From Bacteriovoracaceae bacterium (GTDB lineage Bacteria; Bdellovibrionota; Bacteriovoracia; Bacteriovoracales; Bacteriovoracaceae): 64,000 nt of DNA. Positions 2,505 to 48,130 of this stretch are shown piece by piece; the stretch's first letter is position 1, and the number at the start of each line of letters is the position of its first letter. A program made the translations under genes and the position numbers. The stretch spans positions 95,763-159,762 of the forward strand of contig CANFVK010000005.1 of NCBI GenBank assembly GCA_947450475.1, in the 5' to 3' direction. The notes under the pieces are model-generated. The model searched no databases. It was not told where the DNA came from and was given only the letters and a program-made list of their open reading frames with translations.

Positions 2505-2521
2505 ATTTGGAGAAATGGAAA

Positions 2522-25711: not shown

Positions 25712-28700
25712 ATGTTAAAAATACTCATTTTGTTATCACTTACTTTTAATTTGGCGTTTGCCAAGTCGCGCTTTACGGAAGAAGACCGTCGCAAATTCAT
25801 GGAGGAAGTAAAGCAAGGTATTGCCGCCCACAAGGTAGACAATAAAGGTAATGTTGATTTTCAAATTATAAAGCCTACCCTCTACGAAGAGTTGGACATT
25901 TATTATAAGCAACAAAAATTTACCCGCGAAGAAGTTGTTAAAATGAAGCAGGATTATGAGGGTTTTATTAAAAAATCGTCGAACCTTTTTAGTGGAGATG
26001 AAAAAGAAAAAGCCTTCATTTCTTTTATTGAGCAAGATTTAAATGAAATCAATCAATCCGAAGTTGCAAAAATAAAAGAAGGTGAAGTCTGCAATAATTG
26101 GGGCTGTGAAGAAGGTCTAAAGTGTGCTCCTGATCCAGTACAGGTCGATGGTAAATCGTGTTTAAAAATGGGCAAAGAGTGTCGTGATGATAAGGATTGC
26201 TGCTCCTCTTCCTGTACTATGGATACAAAAAAGCAAAAGAGATTTTGCGAAGAAGTCTATCGTTGCTTTAAGCCTCTTGATTTGGGTGAATCATGTATGA
26301 CTAACCCTGTTTGTGGAGAAGGCGATTGCTTGCCTTATAATTCTAAAACTTCTGGAATTGGTGAGTGCGAGGATAACAAACATTCTTGTAAAAAAAATAG
26401 CGATTGCTGCTCTAATTCGTGCGTTGAAAAAAAATGCTCAATCTCTTTCATCTGTAAAGATTGTGTAAAAAACGGCAGTAAACCTCAAAGAGGACAAACG
26501 TGTTGCGAGGGGCTTTATCAAGATCAATCTGGACGCTGCGTTCCTGATATGCCTCCAATCGTTCCACCACAGGTAAAAAATGACAAAGTCTCTGATAAAA
26601 TAGTTGCGACCCTGGCTTCTCTTTTGTTGAATTCGGCCCATGCAGATGAAGCCTATGACGAAGTTAATTCGGATCGTGACAAATACTCCAATTATCAAGC
26701 GACCTCATCAACACCAGATGCGGTAAAGGTTAAATCTGCTAATTTTACTTTGACCAGAAAATCAGACTTCAATACTTGTGACGTAAAATTTAGAGATGAC
26801 TTCCTTCAGTACTTGCAACAAGAAAAATTACTTGATTTAGAGCTGGCGATGATTTCTTTTAACTTTGTCTTTCTCGGGGATGGAGTTAACGATTATTGGA
26901 AACTGACATCGGATGAAAACTCTTCAATTTATGGCAGGCTTAAGGCGATTGCTCAGAGACAGCAACAAATGCGTGAAGCTGATAACGCTAAAATGCAAAC
27001 TATTAACCATAAACTTACTTGTATGTGTCTTGATGCTCAGGGTTTTCAAAACATAAAAGATGAAACCAAAAAGAAATTTTTCATGGAAGAATGTGAGGAA
27101 TATAAAACAGCTCTTGCTGGAGCTGTTTGTTACAAATCAGTTCCATGCGATACGGCGTCTGCTGGAACGCCAGTGTGTAACAATGGTCGGATGTTAACAA
27201 CGAATGGTTGTCTTTTGGGTGAGAGTGATTGCGTGTGTACTCAAAGTCAAATTCAAAGTATTCAAAAAGAAACAGCTTCTGGGATAAAAGGTAAACGCTT
27301 AATCGTAACTTTTACTTCAAAGTTAACTGAGTTTAATCAAGCTCTGACTGTCGATCATACGGAAACATACAATGCTATCAGTAAGGTTGGAGCTTATACC
27401 AATCAAGCCAATTGGAATGATACTAGTACTAAAACTTATTCATTATTTAATTTTAGCTTAAAAAATCCAAGCGGAAGTGTCGCTGCCATGGGAGCCATCC
27501 TTGGTGCACTATTAGCTGCAGGGGTTATTGCCGTTTTAGGTGGCTTTGCTACAACGTCGATGCTTTCAGCATGGGCCGCAGCTGGAATCATTGCAACTTC
27601 GGCCGCAACCGGGGGAACTGGATTGTGGTTGATAGCATCTTTAAAAGGAGCTTGGATTTCTAAGAGACCTGTGGTTTATGACAACATGATAAGCCAGTAT
27701 GGTTGTGGAAAAAAAGAAACATGCCAAGATTGGAGCCGCAAATTAACTCAGCCATATAACAATATTTGTAATGTTCACGCTTCGGCCAATGCTTGTGTGA
27801 AGAATTTTGTGGTGTGGAATGATGAAGCTACCGGTGAGCCTCGCTATGTAGTCGATCCTTGGGTTCCATGGGGAGTGCCTAAAGCTGAACTCCTAAGAGA
27901 TACTGGAGGAGTACGCAATTACGCTGAGAAATTAGAAGATGGATTCCAAGAAGCAAAAGATGCCATGATAGCTAAAAACCCAGGGGCCACCGGTGGCGGT
28001 GGTAAAGATGGTGGTGGAGCATTTGTATCTGAAGATTATATGCGCCAACTTTTTATCGACTCTGATGTGCTTGGGCATTATGCTCCCAAAATAGGAACAG
28101 ATGAAAATCAATACTTACTTACTTCAGATGTTGTAGAAAAAATTAAGACTCAAGCTGGTAAATTCCTAATTCTTTCTCAATTAGTTGAAAGACACGTAAT
28201 TGCATCGCCAACAAAAGATATGCAAACTTCTCGTTACTGCGTTAAGGATACGGATCAATCGATTTACTGTTCAGATGATAAGGACAATATTGATAAGTTT
28301 GCCGATTATGCGTATGAATTTCACTTTAAATGGCCAAAAACATCTCGCTTAAAAGAAATAAGTTATCCAACTGTTGCGCTCTCAACTTATTTAGATCTCA
28401 TGTCAAATGGTGTTGTGTTCTCAATGGCTTCTGGTGCTACTAAAGCCGCAAATACTTTTGGTCTGTTGAATGCTCAGTATCTCGACGATTATTTGAAAAC
28501 GTTGGACCTCTATAAGAGTAATACGGTTGACTGTGCCGCTGGACAAACCTGTACGGGGACATCGAAAACGATTAGTACCGATGCAGATAAAGTTAAAGCA
28601 GATCTTGATGCTCAGAAATTAACAAATGCCTTGGCCGGAAATGGCACTCTAGATGCCCAGTTATTAAACTTAAATCCGAACACATTAAGTGGAGCGGCTA

Positions 28701-29425
28701 AACAAGCGGGAATCAACGGAGGAAATTTATCATCAGGACAATCTGCTTTCTTGAATGCCATCGGCTCGCTAAGAAAAGCTCGAAAAGATCAGCTTAAAAA
28801 ATTAGATTTTTTCAATAAAGCCATGGCTTCTAAAGGAAAATCAAATGCTGATCGCACTGCCAAGATGGCGGCAGTCTCTAAAAAATTCTCTAATGCTTTC
28901 ATCAAGCCTTTAAGTGGTGGGCGTGGCGGTTCATCATCTGGATCAAGCCTCTTTGGTTCTGGTGGAGCAGATGGACTGAGCTCTGATGCCAACGGTAAAG
29001 ATAAAAATGGTAGCGGTGGTGATGGAAGTGGAAAAAATGGGGCGGGCAGTGGATATGGAGCTTACGGTATAGGGTCGCTAGGGAATGGGACCTATGGTAA
29101 CGGTGGAGACGGTTCAGGTGCAAATGCTTACGGAGCTGGCGGCGATGGAAGTGGAAACGGCTATGGTAAAAACGGCAAAGGTGGTACTGGCAGTGGAGAT
29201 ACAGGTGCCAACTTAAATGCTCTTGGTAAAGCTAATGGTATGAGTGATGAGGATGCACGCCGATTAGCAGAAGCAATTGAAGCTCGTGATCGTGCCAACC
29301 AAGAAAAATATAAATCACAAGCCGATAAAACTTTATTTGAACAAGTTACAAACGCTTATATTAGAAATTACGACAAAGTATTAATTAAGAAAAAGACTGA
29401 CAAGGACGTCATTGAGCAAAAGTAA
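25712..29425 (+). CDS. Giant (1237 aa) exported cysteine-rich protein with an internal TM hairpin and a Gly-rich tail
   Basis: Signal peptide MLKILILLSLTFNLAFA. Cys-rich block at aa 127-276 containing two C-x6-C-x5-CC-x3-C-xn-C modules. Two hydrophobic helices at aa ~589-645. GGDGSG-type repeats near the C-terminus. Confidence 0.7.
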   Translation: MLKILILLSLTFNLAFAKSRFTEEDRRKFMEEVKQGIAAHKVDNKGNVDFQIIKPTLYEELDIYYKQQKFTREEVVKMKQDYEGFIKKSSNLFSGDEKEKAFISFIEQDLNEINQSEVAKIKEGEVCNNWGCEEGLKCAPDPVQVDGKSCLKMGKECRDDKDCCSSSCTMDTKKQKRFCEEVYRCFKPLDLGESCMTNPVCGEGDCLPYNSKTSGIGECEDNKHSCKKNSDCCSNSCVEKKCSISFICKDCVKNGSKPQRGQTCCEGLYQDQSGRCVPDMPPIVPPQVKNDKVSDKIVATLASLLLNSAHADEAYDEVNSDRDKYSNYQATSSTPDAVKVKSANFTLTRKSDFNTCDVKFRDDFLQYLQQEKLLDLELAMISFNFVFLGDGVNDYWKLTSDENSSIYGRLKAIAQRQQQMREADNAKMQTINHKLTCMCLDAQGFQNIKDETKKKFFMEECEEYKTALAGAVCYKSVPCDTASAGTPVCNNGRMLTTNGCLLGESDCVCTQSQIQSIQKETASGIKGKRLIVTFTSKLTEFNQALTVDHTETYNAISKVGAYTNQANWNDTSTKTYSLFNFSLKNPSGSVAAMGAILGALLAAGVIAVLGGFATTSMLSAWAAAGIIATSAATGGTGLWLIASLKGAWISKRPVVYDNMISQYGCGKKETCQDWSRKLTQPYNNICNVHASANACVKNFVVWNDEATGEPRYVVDPWVPWGVPKAELLRDTGGVRNYAEKLEDGFQEAKDAMIAKNPGATGGGGKDGGGAFVSEDYMRQLFIDSDVLGHYAPKIGTDENQYLLTSDVVEKIKTQAGKFLILSQLVERHVIASPTKDMQTSRYCVKDTDQSIYCSDDKDNIDKFADYAYEFHFKWPKTSRLKEISYPTVALSTYLDLMSNGVVFSMASGATKAANTFGLLNAQYLDDYLKTLDLYKSNTVDCAAGQTCTGTSKTISTDADKVKADLDAQKLTNALAGNGTLDAQLLNLNPNTLSGAAKQAGINGGNLSSGQSAFLNAIGSLRKARKDQLKKLDFFNKAMASKGKSNADRTAKMAAVSKKFSNAFIKPLSGGRGGSSSGSSLFGSGGADGLSSDANGKDKNGSGGDGSGKNGAGSGYGAYGIGSLGNGTYGNGGDGSGANAYGAGGDGSGNGYGKNGKGGTGSGDTGANLNALGKANGMSDEDARRLAEAIEARDRANQEKYKSQADKTLFEQVTNAYIRNYDKVLIKKKTDKDVIEQK

Positions 29426-30536
29426 TTTTGATGAAAAGAATAAAACGAGACTAGTTAACTTAGATTTCTTACGCGGATTATTTGTCATCTTAGCACTCGA
29501 TCAACATTTCACGTACTACATTAACATGTGGTACGTGTCTTATTTTAGAGATGTCATGGCGCTCACTTCAACATACAAAATTAATTTTCCTATGATCGGT
29601 CACCAAATTTCAACAGATCGTTTTAATCTTATGCTTGGAATTATATTCACCCCTTGGGTGAGTCAAGTGTATCTTACAATGGCTTCATTTAATTTGGCCC
29701 GCAAGCCCAGCTACCTTTTTAGAGATGAATTAGCTTCGAAGCTCAAAATGTTTGGACTTATTTTTATTTTTTTTACTTTAGAAAATTTTATAGTCGCACC
29801 CAACAGTGGTGAAGCCATTTCGTTTTATCCCATTATGTTGTGGATGGTGGTAATGAGCATTATTTCCATTTTTTACAGCTTGATGGGGATTAGAGGGGTC
29901 TTGTTACTTACACTGATATCATTTTTACGCTGGGTTGTGCCCATTGATATGCTGTCAAATCTTTTTCAAAGTATAATCCGTTATAATATTCATCCTGGTT
30001 TTGAATATGATGCTCGCATTGAATATTTTTTCTCTTCGGGCTGTTTGGGATTCATAATGGGTCATGCCCATTATCACATGCCCAATTACAAAAAAGTGAA
30101 AGACTTCTATTTCATGCTATTGGGACTTGTTTTTGTTTTATTTTATTGGGCCTATGGGATTCCTTATATAATTGATCCATCCAACGCTTTTGCGCATGAG
30201 CACGATATGGCCCAAAGCTTTAGTGGGACTCTTTTTATTTTAGGAGTTCAGGCATTTGTAATCTCAACTTTTTTATGGCTTGAAAAAAAAGAAATACGAT
30301 TTAATGTTCCGATATTTACATGGGTGGGAGCAAATTCATTGCTTGTTTTTGCCCTTCACAGAGTTTTCTTTGTCAAGTTTTTAGCCCCCGTTAGCTTGAT
30401 GGTGGGAAGCATGCTGGGGCGACCGATTGGAGCTTCAACTTATGAGCTCTACAGTTATGTAGGTCTCACCATAGCATTTTGCTATTTTGTAAAAGCAACT
30501 CGTCTCAATGAAATACTTGTGACAAGAAAAGGATAA
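29412..30536 (+). CDS. Polytopic membrane protein, acyltransferase-3/DUF1624-like (heparan N-acetyltransferase-like)
   Basis: N-terminal RLVNLDFLRGLFVILALDQHF resembles the R-x-x-x-D-x-x-RG...H start of these families. About 9-10 TM helices. The TTG start overlaps the upstream stop by 14 nt, with AAGGA upstream. Confidence 0.5.
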   Translation: MSKSNFDEKNKTRLVNLDFLRGLFVILALDQHFTYYINMWYVSYFRDVMALTSTYKINFPMIGHQISTDRFNLMLGIIFTPWVSQVYLTMASFNLARKPSYLFRDELASKLKMFGLIFIFFTLENFIVAPNSGEAISFYPIMLWMVVMSIISIFYSLMGIRGVLLLTLISFLRWVVPIDMLSNLFQSIIRYNIHPGFEYDARIEYFFSSGCLGFIMGHAHYHMPNYKKVKDFYFMLLGLVFVLFYWAYGIPYIIDPSNAFAHEHDMAQSFSGTLFILGVQAFVISTFLWLEKKEIRFNVPIFTWVGANSLLVFALHRVFFVKFLAPVSLMVGSMLGRPIGASTYELYSYVGLTIAFCYFVKATRLNEILVTRKG

Positions 30537-30544
30537 GGAAGACT

Positions 30545-31615
30545 ATGGACACTAGGTCCCAGCATTTAATTTTTGATGCCATTCTTGAAAAAGAGATAAC
30601 ACAAGCTGATGTCGATGGTATTAAAAATGTTATAGAGAAAAATCTAACTGTCGTTGAAAAAGTGGAGTATAAATTTACACCACAAGGTGAAACAATTGTC
30701 TTTATCCTTTCTGAATCCCACTTTAGCCTTCATACCTATCCCGAAAATAAATATATCTCTATGGACATATATGTTTGCAACATGGAAACAAATCTTGAAA
30801 AAATTATCGATGAGATAAAGGGGATTGTTTCGTTTGAGAAAATTGAATCGCGCATTTTGCCCAGAGGTAGAATTGCTCAGGGAACGATTGATCGAAGTGT
30901 TCAAGTCGTTTATTTGCTAACCATCGTTGTCGCCTGTTGTAGTATCTTGTACGAGTTTTTATTGGCGCAATCTATTTCCACCACGATGGGCAATACCGCA
31001 TTGAGATACAATTTAACCATTGGACTTTTTATAGCTTCAATGGGATTTGGGGCCATCTTGTACAAAAAACTAATTGGGCCAGATCATTTTAAAGAATTTA
31101 TCAAAGTAGAGCTCTTACTTTCCCTTATCGGTGGTATTGCTCCAGTTCTAGTTTTGATTATTGATTATTTTTTTAATTCATTTGCCAAAATATCCAATGT
31201 TTCATTTTTTTCATTTTGGATACAGGCTCCACTTTTTTCGATAAATCACTTGCTAATTGTCGCGATTGGCTTTCTTTCTGGCTTGGAATTACCTCTATTG
31301 ATGGATATGAGCAAGAAGTTCACAACGACGAAAGGGCATTTTGTATTAGCATATGATTATTTAGGCACATTGCTTGGAGCGATTTTATTTCCTATTATTA
31401 TTCTGCCTAATTTGCACTTGTTTACAATCGGCTATGTCGTCTCTGCAATCAATATTTTAGTAGCACTCTTTGTGATGATTAAAATGAAAATAAATCATCG
31501 CGGCTATCGTTTGGCAATATGGCTGATGTTGATTACTTGGATTTTTGTAATTATTCAATCAACTTCTCTCAATGAATTTATTGTTGAAAGATTCTATTTT
31601 GGCGGGAAGTTTTAA
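30545..31615 (+). CDS. S-adenosylmethionine decarboxylase (SpeH-type pyruvoyl proenzyme) fused to a polytopic membrane domain
   Basis: FILSESHFSLHTYPE matches the class-1 AdoMetDC self-cleavage motif (E57|S58, Ser codon at nt 30716-30718). Residues ~115-356 are multi-TM and resemble the N-terminal domain of the next gene. Confidence 0.7.
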   Translation: MDTRSQHLIFDAILEKEITQADVDGIKNVIEKNLTVVEKVEYKFTPQGETIVFILSESHFSLHTYPENKYISMDIYVCNMETNLEKIIDEIKGIVSFEKIESRILPRGRIAQGTIDRSVQVVYLLTIVVACCSILYEFLLAQSISTTMGNTALRYNLTIGLFIASMGFGAILYKKLIGPDHFKEFIKVELLLSLIGGIAPVLVLIIDYFFNSFAKISNVSFFSFWIQAPLFSINHLLIVAIGFLSGLELPLLMDMSKKFTTTKGHFVLAYDYLGTLLGAILFPIIILPNLHLFTIGYVVSAINILVALFVMIKMKINHRGYRLAIWLMLITWIFVIIQSTSLNEFIVERFYFGGKF

Positions 31616-33330
31616 TGGACAAACGATCATTAATTAAAGCAGAACTTTTTTTAATAACTAGTCTTTTAGCTTTTTGTAGCATTGTCTACGAACTTCTTCT
31701 GTCGAATACCTTAGCGATAGTTACCCAGAATTATATCTGGTGGCAATCTTTCACAATTGGGATTTATATAGGTGGATTGGGACTTGGAGCTTATTTTTCA
31801 GATAGGTTCAAAGATACATATAAAAACATTATCAGCGTGGAACTATTGCTGTCGTTTTTTGGTGCTATTTGTGTGCTCTATGTCTATCTTTTTCATGGTA
31901 TATATAAATATATAGACAGTTTGTTTTTCTACACCGGCGATTTCTACTCAACCTTTTATTTGCAAAATGTTTTTTTATTGAAAATAGTTTTTTTTATTGC
32001 CATTCAGGTACTCACGCTTTCTATTGGAACACTTTCTGGGTTTGAAATTCCTCTTATGATGAAAATGGCAGTTGAAAGACTTGGAGAGTCTGAAGAGGGA
32101 GAGCATTATATATTAGGGGTCAATTATCTAGGAACACTGATTGGAACAATTTGTTTTGCTTACTTTTTATTGCCTAAATTAGATGTAGTAAAAACATCTG
32201 TTTTCGTCGCACTCTTGAATCTTTTAGTATGCCTCTATTTCCTGGTAAGATATGTAAAGAAAAATCGAGCTCTATATTCTAGCTTTACAGTGGCCATTGC
32301 TTTACTTATTTCAGTTGTTGGATTTAATGAAAGCTCCATCACTCAGGGCTATTTAAAGTTCTTTTATTATCTTCCCAAAATCCTGGCGAAAGATAATCTT
32401 GATTTCACTGACCTTGTACGAAGAATTGAAGGATTTAAGCCAATCGAAAGAACTAAATCACTTTACCAGTATGTTGATATTTTTAATTATCCAATGACTG
32501 AAGATGGAATTGTTAAGGATTCAACCATATTAACTCTTGATACTAATTTTCAGTTCAACACTGCTACTGAGTTTTATTATCATCAGGCCTTTGCTCATAT
32601 TTCGATAGCTTTAAATAAGAAAATTCCCAAAAGAATACTTATGCTTGGTGGGGGAGATGGTCTTTTATTAAGAGAATTATTAAAATATCCTGAAATCGAA
32701 TTCATAAAGCAAATTGAACTAGATCAAAAGATGATTGATCTTGCTAATTCGCGTTTTGCAGAGCTCAACAAGCACTCAATGCAGGATCCAAGAGTTCATA
32801 CTGAAATTAACGATGGATTCTATTACGCTAGAACAACTAATGAAAAATTCGACGCTGTTTTTATTGATTTTCCTTACCCAAATTCTTACGACCTCTCTCG
32901 TTTGTATAGCGTTGAATTCTATTCATACGTTAGAAAATTACTAAATCCCAACGGTTTTGTCGTACTGGATTCACCTTTTTATAATAAGGTAGATTACAAC
33001 AAAGATCGCTATCAAGGCCGTGTTGTTTTCACTCAGGTCTTTAACGATGTCCAGGTTAAAAGCAATAGTGTTGTCGCAAGCACGTTTTATTATGCTGGTT
33101 TCAAATCATTTTTTCCTTATCGGGTTTCAGATGAATCTTTTATATTCCTGAAGGAGGAGCCAGGCATGATTGATTTCAATTTTATGGATGGTGCCGATCT
33201 CTCTAAATTGCAACCGCAAACGATTAGAGAAATGAAAGAAATAAAAAACCAACAATTTCCCTATAGAATTGCCTTCAAGTTCGTCAACTCAATCTTTAAG
33301 CCTACTCTCATAAGAAAGAACGAATTTTAA
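31615..33330 (+). CDS. Membrane-anchored spermidine-synthase-like aminopropyltransferase with an atypical acceptor motif
   Basis: About 7 N-terminal TM helices. GGGDG at nt 32647-32661, IELD, DPRV. DFPYP sits in place of the canonical D-S-(S/T)-D-P (nt 32866-32880). The ATG shares 1 nt with the upstream TAA. Confidence 0.8.
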   Translation: MDKRSLIKAELFLITSLLAFCSIVYELLLSNTLAIVTQNYIWWQSFTIGIYIGGLGLGAYFSDRFKDTYKNIISVELLLSFFGAICVLYVYLFHGIYKYIDSLFFYTGDFYSTFYLQNVFLLKIVFFIAIQVLTLSIGTLSGFEIPLMMKMAVERLGESEEGEHYILGVNYLGTLIGTICFAYFLLPKLDVVKTSVFVALLNLLVCLYFLVRYVKKNRALYSSFTVAIALLISVVGFNESSITQGYLKFFYYLPKILAKDNLDFTDLVRRIEGFKPIERTKSLYQYVDIFNYPMTEDGIVKDSTILTLDTNFQFNTATEFYYHQAFAHISIALNKKIPKRILMLGGGDGLLLRELLKYPEIEFIKQIELDQKMIDLANSRFAELNKHSMQDPRVHTEINDGFYYARTTNEKFDAVFIDFPYPNSYDLSRLYSVEFYSYVRKLLNPNGFVVLDSPFYNKVDYNKDRYQGRVVFTQVFNDVQVKSNSVVASTFYYAGFKSFFPYRVSDESFIFLKEEPGMIDFNFMDGADLSKLQPQTIREMKEIKNQQFPYRIAFKFVNSIFKPTLIRKNEF

Positions 33331-34382
33331 ATGCTGTCTGCGCCCGCAACATATAGCGATAACCCCAAGTCAATCCATTCAGCAAGAGGTTTAGGTCCTA
33401 AGAGAGACTGTAAGAAATCTTTTTCAGTTAGTTCAAATTGTTTGTTATCAAATATTATTATCACCTTAGAATCATGGATAACTTTAATTTCAAGTCTGCC
33501 ATCAGAGACATTGGCAAGAAAAAGATTTAATTCTTTGGGATCTCCAAGTTTCATAAATGCGGTATAAAAAATTTCCTTGTTTTGAGACAGAACTTGTTCG
33601 CTTTCAGGAAGCCATAGTTTGAAAACTTCAAGTTCCTTTATTATTTGGGCATACTCCTTTAGTCCTAGACACGAAATCTCATGAATAATATTTGTTAAAT
33701 CTCTTCCCTTGTTAACACAGAAATATTTTTCAATACAATGATCAGAGTTTCTTTTTATATAAAGGTCAATCGAAGACATGCCACGGATAATCGACCAATC
33801 TTTTTGTTCTCGTTTAATGGTAAAAAAATGATTTTGATTAAAATGAACATAAAGATTAACAATGGTCTCAAAGTCATTTTCAGATAATTCGGAAAATTGA
33901 GTTCGCTCGTAGCCTATTGGCCTCTGGTCATGTTGGAATATTGTTTTGCCAGTTTCGATTAAACCACCTGTGCGATAAAAAGAAAATTTTTCATATAATC
34001 CCTCAATCTCACTCCATAGTAGAAACAAGGAGACCTTATCTTGAAATTTAACTAGTACATGGTTCAAAAGTGTTTTGAAAAATTTTTTTCCACGATATTT
34101 TTTTGCAGTTACAATTCCACCAATGATTGCGACAGGAGTCTCCACCCCATTTTTAACGGCGATGCGCTCACATACTGATAAATGGGCCACAACCTGATTG
34201 CTTTCTTGGTCAATAATAACAAAACAATTTTCAAAATTTAGTGGATGTACCAAGGGCGCAAAGTCGATGTCAAAATGATTATCTTGATGATAATGAAATT
34301 CTTCTTCTATAAGGAGAATTGTTTCTTCAAAATATTCTGGATTCTCAGATAAAGTAGTCAGAACATATTTATTTTCATTCAT
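33327..34382 (-). CDS. GNAT N-acetyltransferase with a C-terminal extension (Eis-like architecture)
   Basis: Acetyl-CoA motif A IGGIVTAKKYRGKKFFKTLLNHVL. At 351 aa it is far longer than a minimal GNAT. Convergent with the aminopropyltransferase gene, with a 4-nt overlap. Confidence 0.65.
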   Translation of the reverse strand: MNENKYVLTTLSENPEYFEETILLIEEEFHYHQDNHFDIDFAPLVHPLNFENCFVIIDQESNQVVAHLSVCERIAVKNGVETPVAIIGGIVTAKKYRGKKFFKTLLNHVLVKFQDKVSLFLLWSEIEGLYEKFSFYRTGGLIETGKTIFQHDQRPIGYERTQFSELSENDFETIVNLYVHFNQNHFFTIKREQKDWSIIRGMSSIDLYIKRNSDHCIEKYFCVNKGRDLTNIIHEISCLGLKEYAQIIKELEVFKLWLPESEQVLSQNKEIFYTAFMKLGDPKELNLFLANVSDGRLEIKVIHDSKVIIIFDNKQFELTEKDFLQSLLGPKPLAEWIDLGLSLYVAGADSI

Positions 34383-34625: not shown

Positions 34626-35474
34626 ATGGGACTTCGAATTAACACAAACGTAGCGTCGTTAAACGCTCAGAGGAACTTAGGTTCAACTCGTATCAACATG
34701 AACAAGTCTTTGGAGAAACTTTCTTCAGGGCAAAGAATCAACAGAGCGGGCGACGATGCTGCTGGTCTGGCGATTTCTGAAAATTTAAAAGCACAAATTA
34801 GAGGATTGGGACAAGCAGAAAGAAATGCGGAAGACGGTGTGTCTCTGGTTCAAATTGCGGAAGGTGCACTTGGTGAAGTTTCAAACATCTTAATCAGATT
34901 AAGAGAACTTTCAGTACAGGCTGCTTCTGATACTATCGGTGGTACTGAAAGAAAATTCCTTAACGTGGAATTTGAGCAACTAACTTCGGAAGTTGATCGT
35001 ATTGCTAATTCAACAGAGTTTAACCGCGTACCACTTCTAAATGGAACTGGTGCAGTGTTTGATATCCAAATTGGAACAAGAAACGATCCTATCTCAGATA
35101 GATTAACTTTCGATGCCTCTTCAGCAGATGTCAATGTCGCAGCTTTAGGTTTAAACCTAGCTTCGGTATCTGATAAAATCTCTGCTCAAAACTCACTTAG
35201 TTCAATTGACCAAGCTATAATTTCTGTTTCAGGAATCAGAGCAGACTTTGGTGCTCTTCAAAACAGATTGCAATCAACGGTTAATAATATTCAAGTAAGC
35301 ATTGAAAACCTAGCTTCTGCCAACTCACGTGTAAGAGACACTGACGTGGCCGCAGAAACTGCAGAATTAACTAAACAGAACATCTTAATGCAAGCTGGTA
35401 CTAGTGTGCTTTCTCAAGCTAACTCAAGTACTAACACAGCACTAAGCTTGATCCAAGCAGCATCTCAGCGCTAA
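34626..35474 (+). CDS. fliC: Flagellin, copy 1
   Basis: MGLRINTNVASLNAQRNL N-terminus, and a C-terminal ...LSQANSSTNTALSLIQ. GGAGGA RBS. Confidence 0.95.
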   Translation: MGLRINTNVASLNAQRNLGSTRINMNKSLEKLSSGQRINRAGDDAAGLAISENLKAQIRGLGQAERNAEDGVSLVQIAEGALGEVSNILIRLRELSVQAASDTIGGTERKFLNVEFEQLTSEVDRIANSTEFNRVPLLNGTGAVFDIQIGTRNDPISDRLTFDASSADVNVAALGLNLASVSDKISAQNSLSSIDQAIISVSGIRADFGALQNRLQSTVNNIQVSIENLASANSRVRDTDVAAETAELTKQNILMQAGTSVLSQANSSTNTALSLIQAASQR

Positions 35475-35671: not shown

Positions 35672-36508
35672 ATGGGCTTAAGAATAAATACAAATATCCC
35701 GTCTTTATCGGCGCAGAGATCTTTGGGAATTACTTCAAGAAACTTAAATGATAACTTGAGAAAGCTATCATCAGGCGAAAGAATAACCAGATCGGGTGAC
35801 GATGCAGCAGGATTAGCGATAAGTGAAAACTTAAAAGCGCAGATCAGAGGAATGAGACAGGCCAAAAGAAATGCTGGCGATGCTATCTCAATGTTACAAA
35901 CGGCAGAAGGTGGAATGAATGAAATATCTAACATCATCATCAGACTTAGAGAACTTTCAGTCCAAGCCGCTTCGGACACAGTGGGAGCAACCGAGAGAGG
36001 TTTCTCAGATATTGAATTCCAAAATCTCAAAGATGAGATCGACAGAATTGCAAAATCTACAGAATTCAACGGAATTAAACTTCTCGATGGTTCTGGCGGA
36101 AAACTCGATTTCCAAATTGGTATTAAAAATGATCCGACTCTCGACAGGCTTAGCTATGACGGAGCAAGATCAGACGCCTCCCTACATGCTCTTGGTTTGG
36201 CAGTAGATGGGGTGACGACGAAGGAAAATGCTCAATCTTCGCTTAAAAAACTTGATGATGCCTTAGTGCAAATCAACGGTATAAGAGCGAATTTTGGTGC
36301 CCTTCAAAATCGGTTGCAATCAACAAGCAACAATCTTGAAGTCAGCGATGAAAATTTATCTGCTGCCAATTCGAGAGTAAGAGATGTTGATGTAGCGGCT
36401 GAAACCGCAGAGATGACAAAGAATAATATTCTTCATCAGGCCGGAGTTTCAGTACTAGCGCAAGCGAATCAAACGCCAAACTCAGCTTTAAAACTACTAC
36501 AAGGTTAA
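35672..36508 (+). CDS. fliC: Flagellin, copy 2
   Basis: MGLRINTNIPSLSAQRSL N-terminus and conserved C-terminal helices. Paralog of copy 1. Confidence 0.95.
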   Translation: MGLRINTNIPSLSAQRSLGITSRNLNDNLRKLSSGERITRSGDDAAGLAISENLKAQIRGMRQAKRNAGDAISMLQTAEGGMNEISNIIIRLRELSVQAASDTVGATERGFSDIEFQNLKDEIDRIAKSTEFNGIKLLDGSGGKLDFQIGIKNDPTLDRLSYDGARSDASLHALGLAVDGVTTKENAQSSLKKLDDALVQINGIRANFGALQNRLQSTSNNLEVSDENLSAANSRVRDVDVAAETAEMTKNNILHQAGVSVLAQANQTPNSALKLLQG

Positions 36509-40980: not shown

Positions 40981-41805
40981 ATGAACACTCGCGCCCTAAC
41001 GTTGGCCTTAGTCATAGCAGGATTTGCGATGATGATGGTCTACACTTACATCGATGATCAAAAAGCAGCGATGGTCAAAGACTATGGGACGCAGAGTTCA
41101 GTCATTGTAGCCAAGGTCGATATACAAGAATTAGATCTAATCGATGATTCAAAAGTTGAAGTAAAAACAGTTCCCGAAAATTTTTTAGCACCAGGACATT
41201 TTAAATCAATCAAAGATTTAGAAAATACAATTGCAACGGTTCCTATTATTAAAGGTGAGCAAATCACCAAGCCAAGAGTGACTTATCCAGGTATAAAGAC
41301 AGGATTATCGCGCCAGGTTTCAGTTGGAAAACGAGCAGTAGCAATCAATATCACGGAACGAGATGCGGTTGGAAGATTGATAAAGCCAGGTGATCGTGTC
41401 GATGTACTTACAGCTATAGATATTTCGCAAGGAGCGAGAAAGGATTTACAAAAAACAAGAACGATTCTGCAAGATGTTCTAGTTCTTTCAACAGGGATGA
41501 GCATGACCAATTCTATTCCTATCTATGGTGTTGAAACTCCCAAAGTTATCCGTACCATGAATTTAAATACCTACTCCTCTTATAGTACGATTACTTTAGA
41601 GCTAGATCCTTACGACGTACAAAAACTCTCTTTCATACAAGCTTACGGCAATGGTTCACTTTCTTTGTCATTGAGAAATAATGCAGACAAAGAACCTGTT
41701 AGGTTAAGAGCAACTCAAATTTATGATGTTCTCGGAGAAGATGCTTCGGAAGCAAAATCTTATTTCTCTGAAAAATATATTAAAGAGTCAAAAAATGCTC
41801 AATAA
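40981..41805 (+). CDS. cpaB: Flp pilus assembly protein CpaB/RcpC
   Basis: N-terminal TM helix. SAF-like VIVAKVDIQELDLIDD...IIKGEQIT. Position within the tad locus. Confidence 0.8.
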   Translation: MNTRALTLALVIAGFAMMMVYTYIDDQKAAMVKDYGTQSSVIVAKVDIQELDLIDDSKVEVKTVPENFLAPGHFKSIKDLENTIATVPIIKGEQITKPRVTYPGIKTGLSRQVSVGKRAVAINITERDAVGRLIKPGDRVDVLTAIDISQGARKDLQKTRTILQDVLVLSTGMSMTNSIPIYGVETPKVIRTMNLNTYSSYSTITLELDPYDVQKLSFIQAYGNGSLSLSLRNNADKEPVRLRATQIYDVLGEDASEAKSYFSEKYIKESKNAQ

Positions 41806-43282
41806 GTTTTTATTTTTCATTTTGGTTTTAATCTTGAGTTTGAAAATTTCATCTCAGGAAGATCCTGCGGGTGAAACTTTAAAAGAAATAGACGTTGTCG
41901 TGGGTCTGGAAAAAATTATTAAATTAGATTTTGTGCCAAATACAGTCGTGAAACTTGCTAACGAAAACTTGGCGTCTTATCAAATTGTTCCATCTAAGAA
42001 AGAAGTTACTATTACCGGACTAAAGGCCGGAGAAACATCATTAACGTTACGAGATAGTGGCGGAGATATTCGGGCAAGATATTTATTAAAAGTTACGGCA
42101 TCCGATCAATCAAAAGTGGTTGTTCAGTTAAAAGAATTATTAGGTGATGTAGAAGGATTGGAGATTGGGATCAAAGGTGATTCTGTTTATGTTGGTGGCT
42201 ATATTGTTGTTCCAAGCGACATTGGAAAAGTTGTCGTTATTCTCGATAAGTATCCAGATGTTTTACGCTTGGTTGAGCTATCTCCTCAAACCCAAGTCGT
42301 AATCGCTCGAAAGATGCAAGAAGAAATTCAAAAATCTAGCTTTAAAGATGTGACTGTCAGAGTCGTCAATGGTAGTTACTGGATAGAGGGAGTTGTTGGT
42401 TCAGATGAAGATAAAACTACCGTAGAAAAAATTGTCCTAGAGTACCTTCCCGATCAAATTCAAAACTTAGCTAGGCGAACTGACGCCGTACAAAAAACCA
42501 AAAAATTACCTTACGCTATTTTACTTACGAAAAATGAAAAGAAAAAACCTGATCCTATCCAAAAACTTTTTAAGATATCAGCACAATTTGTTGAACTAAC
42601 CAAAGGCTACGATAAATTATTTTCTTTTACCTGGACTCCACTTATTGGTGCAGACGGTGGTCAAATTTCCATAGGAAAAGGAAGCAGTGGCGGGGTCACG
42701 ACGAGTTCTAGCGGAACGTTGGCTGCAACTATTTCTAATCTATTTCCTAAACTAAACTCTGCAAAAAGTGCTGGTCACGCTCGCATACTTGAATCGGGAG
42801 TTATTGTGGTGAAGGAAAATGTAGCGGGAGTCATAAAAAAGACAACTCAAATTCCTTTTCAGATAGGAACTGGAGATAATGCCAAAGCGGGAATAGCAGT
42901 TGCGGGCTTTGATATGAGCATTACACCCAAACCTCTGCAAGAAGAAAAAATTGAAATGAAGGTTGTCATCAATGTTAGCTCCGTCTCAGGCGATGCCACG
43001 CCTCAAACTCTAAACAACACCGTGGATACGACCGTAATAGTTAAGTCACAAGATTCAGCAGTAATCGGGGGAGTCGTTACCAGTAAAACTCAAACGGACT
43101 TTGATAAAGAAGGCGATCCCATCAAGATAGATGGAGGAGCGCCATTGTTTGCATTTATTAAATCAAAAAAATACTCAACCAACAGATCTCAATTCGTTAT
43201 TTTTGTTACACCTGAAATTATAGAATCAGCTGCAACAGGGGTTTCAGAGATCGAACGAAAATTTAGAAAAAGGAGCCGATAA
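41795..43282 (+). CDS. cpaC: Tad secretin CpaC/RcpA
   Basis: Signal peptide MLNKFLFFILVLILSLKISS. C-terminal secretin core (...VIGGVVTS...SQFVIFVTPEII). Confidence 0.85.
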   Translation: MLNKFLFFILVLILSLKISSQEDPAGETLKEIDVVVGLEKIIKLDFVPNTVVKLANENLASYQIVPSKKEVTITGLKAGETSLTLRDSGGDIRARYLLKVTASDQSKVVVQLKELLGDVEGLEIGIKGDSVYVGGYIVVPSDIGKVVVILDKYPDVLRLVELSPQTQVVIARKMQEEIQKSSFKDVTVRVVNGSYWIEGVVGSDEDKTTVEKIVLEYLPDQIQNLARRTDAVQKTKKLPYAILLTKNEKKKPDPIQKLFKISAQFVELTKGYDKLFSFTWTPLIGADGGQISIGKGSSGGVTTSSSGTLAATISNLFPKLNSAKSAGHARILESGVIVVKENVAGVIKKTTQIPFQIGTGDNAKAGIAVAGFDMSITPKPLQEEKIEMKVVINVSSVSGDATPQTLNNTVDTTVIVKSQDSAVIGGVVTSKTQTDFDKEGDPIKIDGGAPLFAFIKSKKYSTNRSQFVIFVTPEIIESAATGVSEIERKFRKRSR

Positions 43283-43284
43283 AA

Positions 43285-45522
43285 ATGGCCGGACACATAA
43301 TTTCGATTATTGGAGGCAAGGGCGGATTGGGCAAGTCTCAAGTTGCAGCTAATTTGGCATTTGCCTATTCACTTGAAGGCAAAGTGAAAACTCTCTTGCT
43401 GGACTTTGATCAAAAAGCTGGTGGTGATCAAGATTTTATAACTGGTATGAAAGGTAAAAAGAATTTAAAAGAACTCGCCGAGTTCAAAGGTTCTATCGAC
43501 CCCAATTCCATTCAGCAATTTGTAAGTATGAATCAAAATGTATTTTACATTGGAATGCCAAACGATGCCACGGCAGCTAATAATATAGAAGTTGAGGCTT
43601 TGGGGAGAACTTTAAAGGCGGTCACAAATATTTATCCCATTACGATTATTGATGCTGGCAATGAATTAACTCCATTGGCAATTAAAGCATTGGAATTTTC
43701 TACCCTTATTTTCGTTGTGGTGACTCCTGATATTCTCGCACTTAATCAGACCAAGAGATTATATTCAGATCTTGTTACGATGATGTTTCCCAAAGATATG
43801 ATTCAATTTGTTGTGAATCAAGCGCAGCAGGGGCATCCGGTAACTAATGATGTTATTTCTAAAACCTTAGGTAAGCCAATTTTTTCAGCTATAGCTAAAG
43901 ATGATCAAAATTGCGTAATGGCACTTAATCAGAAAAAGCCTGTGATGCTCGTTGCGAGAAACAGTGCATTTGCTAAGGGTATAGTCGATACCGTTAGGCG
44001 ATTAAACGAAAAAAGTGTTTTAAAAACACTTGAGCGTCTTTCTAAACCTAGTGATGCCGGAGTTAAAAAAGAAGAAAGCAAAGATGGAGCCGTCTCTCCA
44101 ACTAAAGGTGGAAAGAGTCCTTGGACTGATCTTAAGTCACGCATCCATCGAGCACTAGTGGATGAGATGGACATCAAAAAAACTGATGAGAATGATCCCA
44201 AAGCTCAAATTATTTTAAAAGAACAAACCAAAAAAATTGTTGTAGAGCTTTTGGGAAAAGAAGATACCAAAGGAATACTCAACGGTCGCGATGATATGAA
44301 TCAGATTGTAAAAGAAATCATCGATGAGGCCTTAGGACTTGGTCCTCTTGAAGATTTGCTTCGAGATAAATCAATTTCGGAAGTAATGGTGGTTGGGCCT
44401 TTTAAGATTTATTATGAACAAGGTGGAAAAATCAAACTTTCTGAAATCACTTTTACTAATGATCGCCAAGTTCTCAATGTTATAGAAAGGATTGTCGCAC
44501 CAATTGGACGACGTATCGATGAAAAAACGCCCTACGTAGATGCTAGACTTCGCGATGGTTCTAGAGTGCATGCCATTATTCCACCGTCATCCATTGATGG
44601 ATGTACCATTACAATTAGGAAGTTCCCAGAGAAGAGATTGACCTACAAAGATCTTGTAAAATACGGTTCCATGACAGAAAGTATGGCCGATTTTTTGCGA
44701 ATTGCAGTTGAGGCCCATCGAAATATCATTGTCTCCGGTGGTACCGGTTCAGGTAAGACGACTCTGATTAATGTGCTCGGTGGTTTTATTCAATCCAATG
44801 AGCGTATCATTACTTGTGAAGACTCCGCGGAACTCAATTTTCCTCAGGAGCATATCGTTCGTTTGGAAACTCGTCCTCCTTCACTTGAAGGCGATGGTGC
44901 CATTGATATACGTTGTCTGGTTAAGCAAACTTTGCGGATGAGGCCAGATCGCATTGTTGTCGGTGAGTGTCGCGGCGGTGAAACCCTCGACATGCTTCAA
45001 GCAATGGGAACAGGTCACGATGGATCAATGACCACGGTTCACTCAAACAATCCCAGAGAATGTATTGGTCGATTAGAGACATTGGTGCAATATGCTGGAA
45101 CTTCAATTTCTCCAAGAGCTATTAAGGAAATGATTGCCAATGCTGTTCACATGATTATTCAACAGTCTCGCTTGGATGATGGCTCTAGAAGAGTTATGTA
45201 CATAACTGAAATTGGTGGGATGCAAGGAGATACAGTTATCTTGCAAGATATTTTTCTTTTCATTCAAAAAGAAATTGATAAAACTGGAAAAATTCTAGGG
45301 GAATTTCAGGCGACAGGTTTTATTCCAAAGTTTATCGAGGTGCTCGAGCGAAAAGGTTACAATGTTCCTAGAGGAATTTTTAGCAATCGTCCTCCTCAAC
45401 CGGCTTCAACTCCCGCTCCAGCTATAGCAGCTGCGCCAGCACCAACGAATAAGGCGAACACTCCAAGTGCGGCAAGTCCAGGGGCAACGTCGACTCAGGC
45501 TAAGCCAGCAGTTAAGAAGTAG
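43285..45522 (+). CDS. Fusion of a ParA/MinD-like TadZ/CpaE module with the TadA/CpaF secretion ATPase, plus a Pro/Ala-rich tail
   Basis: N-terminal deviant Walker A IIGGKGGLGKSQVAANLA. C-terminal VirB11-type GGTGSGKTT, Asp box and His box (GHDGSMTTVHSN). The last ~50 aa are PPQPASTPAPAIAAAPAP... Confidence 0.85.
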   Translation: MAGHIISIIGGKGGLGKSQVAANLAFAYSLEGKVKTLLLDFDQKAGGDQDFITGMKGKKNLKELAEFKGSIDPNSIQQFVSMNQNVFYIGMPNDATAANNIEVEALGRTLKAVTNIYPITIIDAGNELTPLAIKALEFSTLIFVVVTPDILALNQTKRLYSDLVTMMFPKDMIQFVVNQAQQGHPVTNDVISKTLGKPIFSAIAKDDQNCVMALNQKKPVMLVARNSAFAKGIVDTVRRLNEKSVLKTLERLSKPSDAGVKKEESKDGAVSPTKGGKSPWTDLKSRIHRALVDEMDIKKTDENDPKAQIILKEQTKKIVVELLGKEDTKGILNGRDDMNQIVKEIIDEALGLGPLEDLLRDKSISEVMVVGPFKIYYEQGGKIKLSEITFTNDRQVLNVIERIVAPIGRRIDEKTPYVDARLRDGSRVHAIIPPSSIDGCTITIRKFPEKRLTYKDLVKYGSMTESMADFLRIAVEAHRNIIVSGGTGSGKTTLINVLGGFIQSNERIITCEDSAELNFPQEHIVRLETRPPSLEGDGAIDIRCLVKQTLRMRPDRIVVGECRGGETLDMLQAMGTGHDGSMTTVHSNNPRECIGRLETLVQYAGTSISPRAIKEMIANAVHMIIQQSRLDDGSRRVMYITEIGGMQGDTVILQDIFLFIQKEIDKTGKILGEFQATGFIPKFIEVLERKGYNVPRGIFSNRPPQPASTPAPAIAAAPAPTNKANTPSAASPGATSTQAKPAVKK

Positions 45523-46426: not shown

Positions 46427-46501
46427 ATTTAATATATAATAATATCGTTTTAAACAACCGAAAATCACGAAGAGTTTTTTATCAACAAGGATTTGAGTTT
46501 T

Positions 46502-48130
46502 ATGAATTTGAAAAAAGTATTGATTGCACTTTCGATGGTGCCAATGATGGCGATGGGGGGAGTGAATTTAAAGAATGGGAATTTTTATATCACTTACACT
46601 GATATAATCGTTCCTGGTGGCGATCATGATTTAGAAGTGACCAGAACCTACAATGCTAAATCGACAGAAAATGGTTGGTTTGGTTATGGTTGGGGATCTC
46701 TTTATGAGACTAAACTCGTGGTTTCTGCAGACGGATCTGTTGTTGTCATTGAAAATGGTTCGGGGGCACAAACTCGATTTATTCCAAAAGAAGCAATAAA
46801 CGTTGACTCAGCATCTAAAAAAATCGTTGAGGCCATGAGAAAAAAAGAACCAATGAGCGAGGCTTCATTGGCAGCTCTTACAACGCGATTAAAAAACGAT
46901 GCAGAACTCCGCCAAGCTTATTCAAAAAAGTATAACGTTGAAACAAAGCTTGCCGATGGTACTACTCTATACTCTAACGATCGCGGTATTCAAAACATTC
47001 AAAAAGTTAAAGAAGGATACAAGCGTAGCAATTCTGATGGCCGCACTGATTTTTTCGATAACGATGGAAAAATTGTCAAAATTACAGATAAAAATGGTTA
47101 TGCCATTAGCTTCGAATACAAGGCAAACCAGGTTTATGCCATTAAGGATACCCAAGCCAAGCAAATTCTTTTAGAGTGGAATCCAGATGGAAAGATTAAA
47201 AGTGCTTCATCGGCCGGAGATAAAAAGACCAACTACACCTATGATACAAAAGGTAATCTCGTTCAGAGTATGGATGTAGGTGGAAACAGTTATAAGTATG
47301 ATTACGATGGCAATCATAATTTAACTTCGATCACTTATATCGATAATAGCAAAATGCAAATTAAGTACGACAAGAATGCTTCTGCGACTGAAGTTATCGA
47401 GCGCAATGGAGAATCGACTAAGTACAAGTACGACAACAATCCCAAAAATCCTGACCTACATTATTGGACTACAGTAACGAAAAAGCCACTTGAGGGACCA
47501 GAGTCAGTGAATCGTTACGAGTATGAAATTAAGTCAAAACCTGATGGACAACAGTACACTTACCGTATTGCTACAGAGACTGATGGATTAAAAACTGAAA
47601 CTATTTATTCTGAGTGCTGCTCACTTCCACTAAAAATTACTCGTGGAAAAGAAGTAACTACTTTTGAATACAATTCCAAAGGATTACTTACTAAAAAAAC
47701 ATCGACTAAAGGAGAGTTTGTTCAACTCGACTACGATGAAAAAATCAACAAAATCACTAAAGTTGTTAATAATGATGGATGGACAACTTTTCAATACGAT
47801 AAGATTGGAAACCTTTCTAAGGCGGTTAACAGTTCAGGAAAATCGGTCCTATTGATTTACGATCGCCTCGGCAAAATTACAAAAATGATTGATCAAGAAA
47901 AAAATGACGAAAAATCAAGAAGAACGCTTTCTTTTAAGTACAATTCAATGGGTAAACCAGTTGAAATTGAGATGGAAAAAGTGGGAATTATTAACGTAGC
48001 CTATGATAATTACGGTGAAATTAAAAAAGTTGAGTCAAAAGCTGGGGCAAAAATGGCGCTTCAGGTGACTCAAGCCTTTCAATCATTATTAAGCATTGTT
48101 AAGCCCGCAGGTGTTAATTTAAATATGTAA
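46502..48130 (+). CDS. Secreted YD/RHS-repeat protein without a recognisable toxin tip
   Basis: Signal peptide. N-terminal NLKNGNFYITYTDIIVPGGDHDLEVTRTYNAKS...GWFGYGW. Many YxYDxxGN repeats (YTYDTKGNL, YKYDYDGNHNL, FQYDKIGNL). Confidence 0.85.
   Translation: MNLKKVLIALSMVPMMAMGGVNLKNGNFYITYTDIIVPGGDHDLEVTRTYNAKSTENGWFGYGWGSLYETKLVVSADGSVVVIENGSGAQTRFIPKEAINVDSASKKIVEAMRKKEPMSEASLAALTTRLKNDAELRQAYSKKYNVETKLADGTTLYSNDRGIQNIQKVKEGYKRSNSDGRTDFFDNDGKIVKITDKNGYAISFEYKANQVYAIKDTQAKQILLEWNPDGKIKSASSAGDKKTNYTYDTKGNLVQSMDVGGNSYKYDYDGNHNLTSITYIDNSKMQIKYDKNASATEVIERNGESTKYKYDNNPKNPDLHYWTTVTKKPLEGPESVNRYEYEIKSKPDGQQYTYRIATETDGLKTETIYSECCSLPLKITRGKEVTTFEYNSKGLLTKKTSTKGEFVQLDYDEKINKITKVVNNDGWTTFQYDKIGNLSKAVNSSGKSVLLIYDRLGKITKMIDQEKNDEKSRRTLSFKYNSMGKPVEIEMEKVGIINVAYDNYGEIKKVESKAGAKMALQVTQAFQSLLSIVKPAGVNLNM

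Follow-up and report, generated by a model that had tools for sequence, protein, structure and literature searches.

Single-chain fusions of S-adenosylmethionine decarboxylase (AdoMetDC) and aminopropyltransferase (APT) make free polyamines (PMC11107197; Pelagibacter examples), and neofunctionalisation has turned some AdoMetDC homologues into amino-acid decarboxylases (PMC10407285). According to Li et al. 2019 (cited in PMC12803844 and PMC11237479), neither spermidine nor spermine is made by bacterial fusions of a membrane protein with an APT-like domain that cluster with AdoMetDC, and spermidine-synthase-like proteins with a seven-transmembrane-helix (7TM) domain, encoded in PspA operons, have been suggested to aminopropylate other substrates (PMC11237479). 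The acceptor of such membrane-embedded APT-like proteins beside AdoMetDC, which are encoded by thousands of bacteria, is an open question in polyamine biology. Here we describe a four-gene operon in a 64,000-nt stretch of contig CANFVK010000005.1 from a Bacteriovoracaceae bacterium (the window, in whose positions all coordinates are given; Table 1) that presents this acceptor problem in a compact and strongly co-conserved form. Its open reading frames (ORFs) encode a giant Cys-rich exported protein (ORF1), a probable transmembrane acyltransferase (ORF2), an AdoMetDC fused to a 7TM domain (ORF3) and a 7TM domain fused to an APT (ORF4); the exported protein with its seemingly portable C-terminal module and the HGSNAT-like acyltransferase are obvious candidate partners for the two enzymes. 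We propose, tentatively and with slightly less than even confidence, that the operon carries out a vectorial aminopropyl transfer, together with an acyl transfer, on an acceptor that is not putrescine and lies outside the cytoplasm.

The four genes are tightly packed. ORF2 starts at a TTG codon (29412) 14 nt inside ORF1, and an AAGGA ribosome-binding site precedes this codon by 5 nt; 8 nt separate ORF2 from ORF3, and the ORF3/ORF4 junction is a TAATG at 31613-31617. The initial annotation had described four co-directional genes with operon-like packing and a convergent GNAT gene overlapping the 3' end of ORF4 by 4 nt, and every coordinate and junction was reproduced from the ORF table and the sequence. 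To place the block in context, loci were gathered with an ORF3 profile (one genome per species) and an ORF2 profile (JGI metagenomes), followed by tblastn. The closest named relatives are Bacteriovorax species, and the B. stolpii locus is fully syntenic. The order ORF1-2-3-4 with short junctions was found in every Bacteriovoracaceae locus with enough DNA, and in all nine metagenome loci that the ORF2 profile retrieved, the partner genes are present as far as the DNA reaches. Because about 30 loci of other genomes or metagenomes, distant ones included, show the same gene order and tight spacing, the arrangement of the block is more than chance.

The closer loci say little about functional linkage, since synteny in these relatives runs from UbiB through to RmlD. 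More telling are six divergent contexts (the P0116 contig, L018, L019, L023, L035 and the marine L036), in which the block is present without UbiB, the GNAT gene, the flagellins or RmlD, at identities of 39-46% for ORF3 and 27-31% for ORF1. When the four most divergent loci, L018, L019, L020 and L023, were compared all against all with flanks of ~10 kb, homologues of ORF1-4 were the only genes in common. The block persists while its flanks turn over, which bears out the four-gene unit proposed earlier, and we regard ORF1-ORF4 as a putative single operon, strongly co-conserved as a unit in the Bacteriovoracaceae.

Both halves of the donor pathway are recognizable in ORF3 and ORF4. The N-terminal domain of ORF3 scores 66.9 bits against the Pfam family AdoMet_dc (PF02675; gathering threshold 25), with 2iii and 1tlu as PDB relatives, and 66 bits against the TIGR03330 equivalog, below its cutoff of 75.65. 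The residues of the E57-S58 cleavage site, together with H63, E67 and C78, vary little or not at all among 12 homologues and stand at the spacing of class 1b enzymes (S63/H68/E72/C83 in T. maritima); judged from the alignment, the processing and catalytic residues are shown to be intact. The remainder of ORF3 contains seven hydrophobic helices and matches the N-terminal membrane part of NF002956 (4e-38, 131 bits). ORF4 likewise begins with a seven-helix domain, which is followed by a Spermine_synth domain (PF01564, 101 bits), for which the Thermus polyamine aminopropyltransferase 1uir is the closest match in the PDB (4e-25). These results agree with the earlier description of an AdoMetDC domain fused to a polytopic domain beside a polytopic aminopropyltransferase, with both halves of the pathway anchored in the membrane. 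The best NCBIfam model for ORF4 is NF002956 (PRK03612), at 260.2 bits against an equivalog cutoff of 472, and the match to NF037959 (fused MFS/spermidine synthase) covers residues 138-235 only, at 22.9 bits against a cutoff of 40.

The active site of ORF4 is conserved for the donor and altered for the acceptor. G345-G346-G347-D348-G349, E368, D370, D400 and D418 are invariant or nearly invariant, so that the domain keeps the site for decarboxylated S-adenosylmethionine (dcSAM), with GGGDG and the acidic ribose and adenine contacts, as well as the catalytic Asp418. In the acceptor region, a DFPYP motif aligns with DLTDP of 1uir and is invariant in all 20+ block-linked orthologues; the motif reads DFPDP in an Omnitrophota relative and DFPFP in two Bdellovibrionales relatives. 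In SpeE structures, the second Asp of D-x-x-D-P anchors the far ammonium group of putrescine, and its replacement by Tyr points to an acceptor that differs from putrescine. The Asp-to-Tyr exchange is a clear active-site signature. In a scan for anti-phage defence with PADLOC, the only match among the proteins scanned was that of ORF4 to mad2 (57 bits, 32584-33000, residues 324-462); it reflects a generic likeness of the class I methyltransferase fold and could mislead automated annotation of defence systems.

The membrane domains of ORF3 and ORF4 are shown by profile comparison to be paralogues: hhalign aligned them with a probability of 99.95% (E 1e-38) over 237 columns, and the alignment extends through a short amphipathic segment after helix 7. 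With helix boundaries mapped on the alignments, the ORF3 family has on average 15.0 Lys plus Arg residues on the N-terminal side of the membrane versus 2.7 on the other side; for the ORF4 family the averages are 9.8 versus 4.5, and about 2.4 of the 4.5 lie within the first 15 residues after the seventh helix. Given this positive-inside charge bias in the loops and the homology of the two domains, both proteins probably have a cytoplasmic N-terminus. The AdoMetDC domain of ORF3 would then lie on the cytoplasmic side, which is the positive side and offers the cytoplasmic S-adenosylmethionine that it needs. For ORF4, a cytoplasmic N-terminus followed by seven helices would put the APT domain outside the cytoplasm, and we predict that it is periplasmic, on the opposite face of the membrane from the AdoMetDC domain. 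An antiparallel 7+7 heterodimer, in which the two proteins have opposite topologies and both catalytic domains are cytoplasmic, was considered and rejected, as the same N-terminal-in bias is found in both families.

Each 7TM domain has conserved Glu residues in helices 1, 3 and 4, and these three intramembrane Glu per subunit would suit the binding of a cationic donor or acceptor. The modules also occur in other arrangements. An Omnitrophota metagenome-assembled genome (MAG; L022:9995-13008) encodes, unfused and in a row, a 7TM-APT protein, a 7TM-only protein and a stand-alone AdoMetDC, followed by a SelO-like protein, and Bdellovibrionales have pairs of 7TM-only and 7TM-APT proteins. As the modules recur in these two groups, a second 7TM subunit is a regular partner, which in the Bacteriovoracaceae carries the decarboxylase. 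One such pair, in a Pseudobdellovibrionaceae MAG (L025:981-2774), is located just downstream of two proteins with prepilin-type N-terminal methylation motifs.

Enzymes of the AT3 (acyltransferase-3) and HGSNAT type take acyl groups from acyl-CoA in the cytoplasm and pass them to an acceptor across the membrane, and HGSNAT acetylates an amine. ORF2, with about 10 helices, has no direct match to PF01757 or PF07786 in Pfam even at E up to 10, no match in NCBIfam or PADLOC, and no match of its profile to PDB sequences; its family is tiny, with 105 relatives in a profile search of 1.84 billion representative proteins. Distant relatives bridge the gap, P0388 passing Acyl_transf_3 (PF01757; 34.9 bits, cutoff 31) and P0396 passing HGSNAT_cat (PF07786; 26.4 bits, cutoff 22). 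The AlphaFold2 (AF2) model of ORF2 has a pLDDT (predicted local distance difference test) of 84, and the top 12 Foldseek matches of this model in the PDB are all human HGSNAT (prob 1.0, TM about 0.5). In the first helix, the motif N16-x-D18-F19-L20-x-G22 ... H32 is invariant and R21 is present in most homologues, so that the Arg...His catalytic motif of AT3-type enzymes can be read in ORF2. On the strength of the intermediates that reach Pfam cutoffs, the HGSNAT fold matches and the motif, ORF2 is best described as a divergent transmembrane acyltransferase of the AT3/HGSNAT type, as predicted from sequence and model, and the acyltransferase-3-like protein of ~10 helices in the initial annotation is upheld. 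The distant ORF2-like AT3 proteins P0376, P0388 and P0392 lie on short contigs, on which no link to the four-gene block was seen.

ORF1 is the partner with the least resemblance to known proteins. It has no match in Pfam, NCBIfam or PADLOC, and none of 13 homologues matches Pfam; its homologues form 80 clusters, all Bacteriovorax-like. In line with the exported Cys-rich product described earlier, it combines a signal-peptide-like N-terminus with 42 Cys, 24 of which fall in residues 127-276; 22 of these 24 are invariant or nearly so (13 to 72 homologues aligned). Two stretches follow the inhibitor-cystine-knot spacing C-x6-C-x5-CC-x3-C-x(4-10)-C, a pattern that comes without a family match; the earlier 'cystine-knot' label is thus based on Cys spacing. 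Further invariant Cys flank the Gly/Ala-rich hydrophobic segment, at C356-C461 on one side and C665-C695 on the other, and the segment is therefore probably a hairpin or non-spanning; it is missing in the three most divergent homologues of the alignment. The many invariant Cys (about 30), on both sides of this segment, argue for an extracytoplasmic, oxidising location of ORF1. The AF2 model of residues 38-1237 is usable (pLDDT 73.6, predicted template-modelling score (pTM) 0.69), and Foldseek found no significant match for it in the PDB or BFVD. Sub-threshold matches to the pore-forming toxins ClyA, AhlC and Cry6Aa (prob below 0.1) are not significant and serve as a lead only.

The C-terminal module is the best conserved part of ORF1 and is kept even in the most divergent homologues. 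In a Bacteriovorax MAG (L004:1328-3934, minus strand), an exported protein of 868 aa is encoded between UbiB and ORF1. This protein is mostly unrelated to ORF1, yet it has the same C-terminal module (...AIEARNK...LFEKVTNAYIRNYDKLL; tblastn E 1e-16), and it also shares with ORF1 a Gly/Ala-rich hydrophobic segment and a Ser/Gly/Asn-rich stretch. Because the module also ends this otherwise different protein, it looks portable, and it is possibly a sorting or recognition tag.

With ORF1 exported, the APT domain of ORF4 predicted outside the cytoplasm and AT3-type acyl transfer directed outward, all four products may act at the outer face of the inner membrane. In the mechanism that we propose, the two paralogous 7TM domains would hold ORF3 and ORF4 together as a pair. 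The AdoMetDC domain, being cytoplasmic, would make dcSAM at the inner face of the membrane, and the APT domain of ORF4 would receive this cationic donor from the 7TM pair or be presented by it with the acceptor. On the periplasmic side, the APT would transfer aminopropyl groups to an acceptor other than a simple diamine such as putrescine, and ORF2 would acylate an amine or hydroxyl on this outer side with a group drawn from cytoplasmic acyl-CoA. ORF1 may be the acceptor or a scaffold, or may act together with the product. We infer that the two membrane proteins form a heterodimer, that the APT domain faces outward, that the acceptor is not putrescine and that ORF1 could be a substrate. The envelope-side, non-standard acceptor suggested at the outset is favoured by two independent hints, the invariant DFPYP and the topology that would place the APT outside the cytoplasm.

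Several points weigh against such a vectorial transfer. The sidedness of the APT domain is deduced solely from hydropathy and charge bias, and a periplasmic APT would need dcSAM across the membrane, for which literature searches gave no precedent. The APT is otherwise a normal SpeE-type enzyme, closest to the broad-specificity Thermus enzyme, and it could simply make a polyamine. No observation ties ORF1 chemically to the enzymes, and ORF2 is not obligatory in cis, as it is absent from the Halobacteriovoraceae locus L020, in which ORF1, ORF3 and ORF4 are present. We can also speculate on a more specific form of the mechanism, although this is rather doubtful: dcSAM would be passed through the 7TM heterodimer to the periplasmic APT, which would extend an exported macromolecule with aminopropyl or polyamine chains, in the simplest case on Lys of ORF1 or of other proteins with its C-terminal module, and ORF2 would then N-acylate them.

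The main rival explanation is ordinary polyamine synthesis, in which ORF3 and ORF4 are a membrane-anchored speD/speE pair making free cytoplasmic spermidine or a related polyamine, and ORF1 and ORF2 are loosely linked, for instance through envelope functions that consume polyamines or react to them. AdoMetDC beside APT is the classic spermidine operon, the dcSAM-binding and catalytic residues are all present, the best NCBIfam model (PRK03612) is named 'polyamine aminopropyltransferase' and the closest structure in the PDB is that of a genuine polyamine APT; in addition, the Omnitrophota relative keeps the canonical DFPDP. Nevertheless, ORF4 reaches only 260 of the 472 bits required by NF002956, the Asp at the distal amine is Tyr in every block-linked orthologue, and the odd number of helices with the N-terminal-in bias would place the APT outside. 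ORF1 and ORF2 moreover stay attached despite complete turnover of the flanks, and the published membrane APT-like fusions do not make spermidine, according to the account of them in PMC12803844. We therefore consider ordinary synthesis a serious contender, although on balance not a likely one. Unlikely, too, is an exported acylated polyamine, aminopropylated by ORF4 and acylated by ORF2, that acts with ORF1 in, for example, predation or envelope protection without modification of a macromolecule. The evidence on enzymes and sidedness that favours the vectorial transfer fits a small molecule and a macromolecular acceptor alike, and the Gly/Ala-rich hydrophobic segment, the long helices and the sub-threshold matches to pore-forming toxins in ORF1 would be in keeping with such a role; however, the toxin-like matches are not significant, and the block contains neither a biosynthetic gene for a diamine precursor nor an exporter.

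It is improbable that the AdoMet_dc domain of ORF3 has become a pyruvoyl-dependent arginine or ornithine decarboxylase that supplies an amine acceptor rather than the donor. Such neofunctionalization is widespread among AdoMetDC/SpeD homologues (PMC10407285), and the TIGR03330 score of ORF3 is below the cutoff, but translational coupling links ORF3 to a dcSAM-dependent APT, the processing and catalytic residues of ORF3 are found at class 1b spacing, and the published cases occur without an APT partner or with a second SpeD (PMC10407285). That the adjacency of the four genes is merely inherited synteny without functional coupling is hardly credible: the synteny of the closer relatives from UbiB to RmlD would allow it, whereas the replacement of the flanks in six divergent contexts, with the block and its tight junctions persisting, largely refutes it. 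Vectorial aminopropyl transfer to an extracytoplasmic acceptor thus remains our preferred, if tentative, interpretation of the operon.

Table 1. Features of the four-gene operon and its convergent neighbour, in window coordinates.
Feature	Position	Strand	Description or basis
ORF1	25712-29425	+	1237-aa exported protein, specific to this lineage
ORF1 signal-peptide-like N-terminus (MLKILILLSLTFNLAFA)	25712..25762	+	read from sequence; conserved in homologue alignment
ORF1 Cys-rich region, residues 127-276	26090..26539	+	24 Cys
ORF1 Gly/Ala-rich hydrophobic segment, residues 589-650	27476..27661	+	low AF2 confidence
ORF1 Gly/Ser/Asn-rich low-complexity linker	28910..29242	+	variable length and sequence; pLDDT about 30
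ORF1 conserved C-terminal module (...AIEAR...LFEQVTNAYIRNYDKVL...)	29243..29422	+	homologue alignment
ORF2	29412-30536	+	predicted divergent AT3/HGSNAT-fold transmembrane acyltransferase, 374 aa
ORF3	30545-31615	+	AdoMetDC fused to 7TM domain
ORF3 AdoMetDC (class 1b) proenzyme domain, residues 1-110	30545..30874	+	PF02675
ORF3 7TM domain and short conserved tail	30899..31615	+	match to membrane part of NF002956; hhalign
ORF4	31615-33330	+	7TM domain (paralogous to that of ORF3) fused to APT
ORF4 7TM domain	31639..32337	+	paralogous to ORF3 7TM domain
ORF4 APT (SpeE-type) domain	32452..33114	+	PF01564
ORF4 DFPYP motif	32866..32880	+	Tyr421 at second Asp of canonical D-x-x-D-P
GNAT gene	33327-34382	-	351 aa; convergent neighbour outside the conserved core

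The GNAT gene had been described as facing the operon in the candidate system; that it is part of this system we reject on phyletic grounds. The gene is absent from all six divergent contexts (L018, L019, L023, L035, L036 and the P0116 contig) as well as from L020, it lies ~1.5 kb from ORF4 in the closer loci L006, L007 and L015, and its retention is limited to loci in which synteny spans the entire region, UbiB and the flagellins included. Its product matches Acetyltransf_9 (36.8 bits) and no other domain, and a phmmer search of the PDB found no Eis chain; the former description as 'Eis-like' is thus based on the Acetyltransf_9 domain.

The surrounding window is ordinary chromosomal DNA of ~37% GC, which also encodes Lon, AlaRS, RecA, RecG, GreA, UbiB, two flagellins, tad-pilus genes, GlmU/GlmS-like genes and UvrD, with RmlD among the neighbours of the block. 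An Rfam scan revealed no riboswitch or other RNA element anywhere in the window, and scans for promoters and terminators gave matches at chance level. The flagellin genes are in tandem, at 34626-35474 (+) and 35672-36508 (+), and the first is 95-99% identical in protein sequence across loci in which other proteins show just 50-80%, a conservation that is unusually strong for a flagellin. The tad/Flp-type pilus genes (41723-45522) encode a secretin and a TadA-like ATPase fused to a ParA/MinD-like domain, and they are directly followed by a gene for an RHS-repeat/DUF6531 protein (46493-48130, +). Two full-length genes for Lon protease, at 2507-5026 (+) and 50230-52647 (-), are present within the 64 kb.

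The operon had been called a candidate undescribed system, which holds in part: membrane APT-like fusions clustered with AdoMetDC have already been published (Li et al. 2019, through PMC12803844 and PMC11237479), and no report of this gene combination was found. In the literature searched, in which Li et al. 2019 was represented by the papers that cite it, there was no report of the DFPYP signature, of an AdoMetDC joined to a paralogous 7TM domain, or of such enzymes linked to an AT3 enzyme and a giant Cys-rich exoprotein, and nothing turned up about polyamines in Bacteriovorax or the topology of enzymes of the Rv2601 type. That the domain making dcSAM and the domain using it face opposite sides of the membrane is a sharp prediction; if true, it would extend dcSAM chemistry to the cell envelope and point to a novel modification at the surface or in the periplasm of predatory bacteria. 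Delivery of dcSAM to a periplasmic APT that polyaminates an exported protein would, if real, take the use of dcSAM outside the cytoplasm for the first time and give bacteria an equivalent of silaffin-type protein polyamination.

Among the closest known systems are the fusions of a membrane protein (MFS or 7TM) with a spermidine-synthase-like domain. As these are portrayed in the citing papers, they share with ORF4 a polytopic N-terminal domain, an APT-like domain and the linkage to a class 1b AdoMetDC, their acceptor is likewise thought not to be putrescine, and a role in the envelope or membrane has been suggested for them. In contrast to the NF037959 fusions, ORF4 falls below the subfamily cutoff (22.9 bits versus 40), and the partners differ: here they are an AdoMetDC with a second, paralogous 7TM domain, an AT3-type protein and a giant Cys-rich exoprotein, whereas in the same accounts the published fusions are accompanied by DUF350, PspA and CesT-type genes. 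The membrane-anchored polyamine APT of PRK03612/NF002956 has the same order of a 7TM domain followed by SpeE as ORF4, and both ORF4 (260 bits) and the membrane part of ORF3 (131 bits) match it; unlike that family, both scores are below 472, DFPYP replaces D-x-P-D-P, and a separate AdoMetDC-7TM paralogue is always adjacent. ORF2 resembles HGSNAT and the AT3 enzymes OafA and OatA in its HGSNAT fold match, the Arg/His motif of the first helix and relatives at Pfam thresholds, and differs from them in the lack of a direct Pfam match, a tiny family (105 representatives) and the absence of a fused SGNH domain. Finally, the AdoMetDC-APT fusion proteins (PMC11107197) resemble ORF3 and ORF4 in the physical coupling of donor-making and donor-using domains; those fusions are one polypeptide and make free spermidine or spermine, whereas here the coupling would run through the paralogous membrane domains of two proteins whose catalytic domains are predicted to lie on opposite sides of the membrane.

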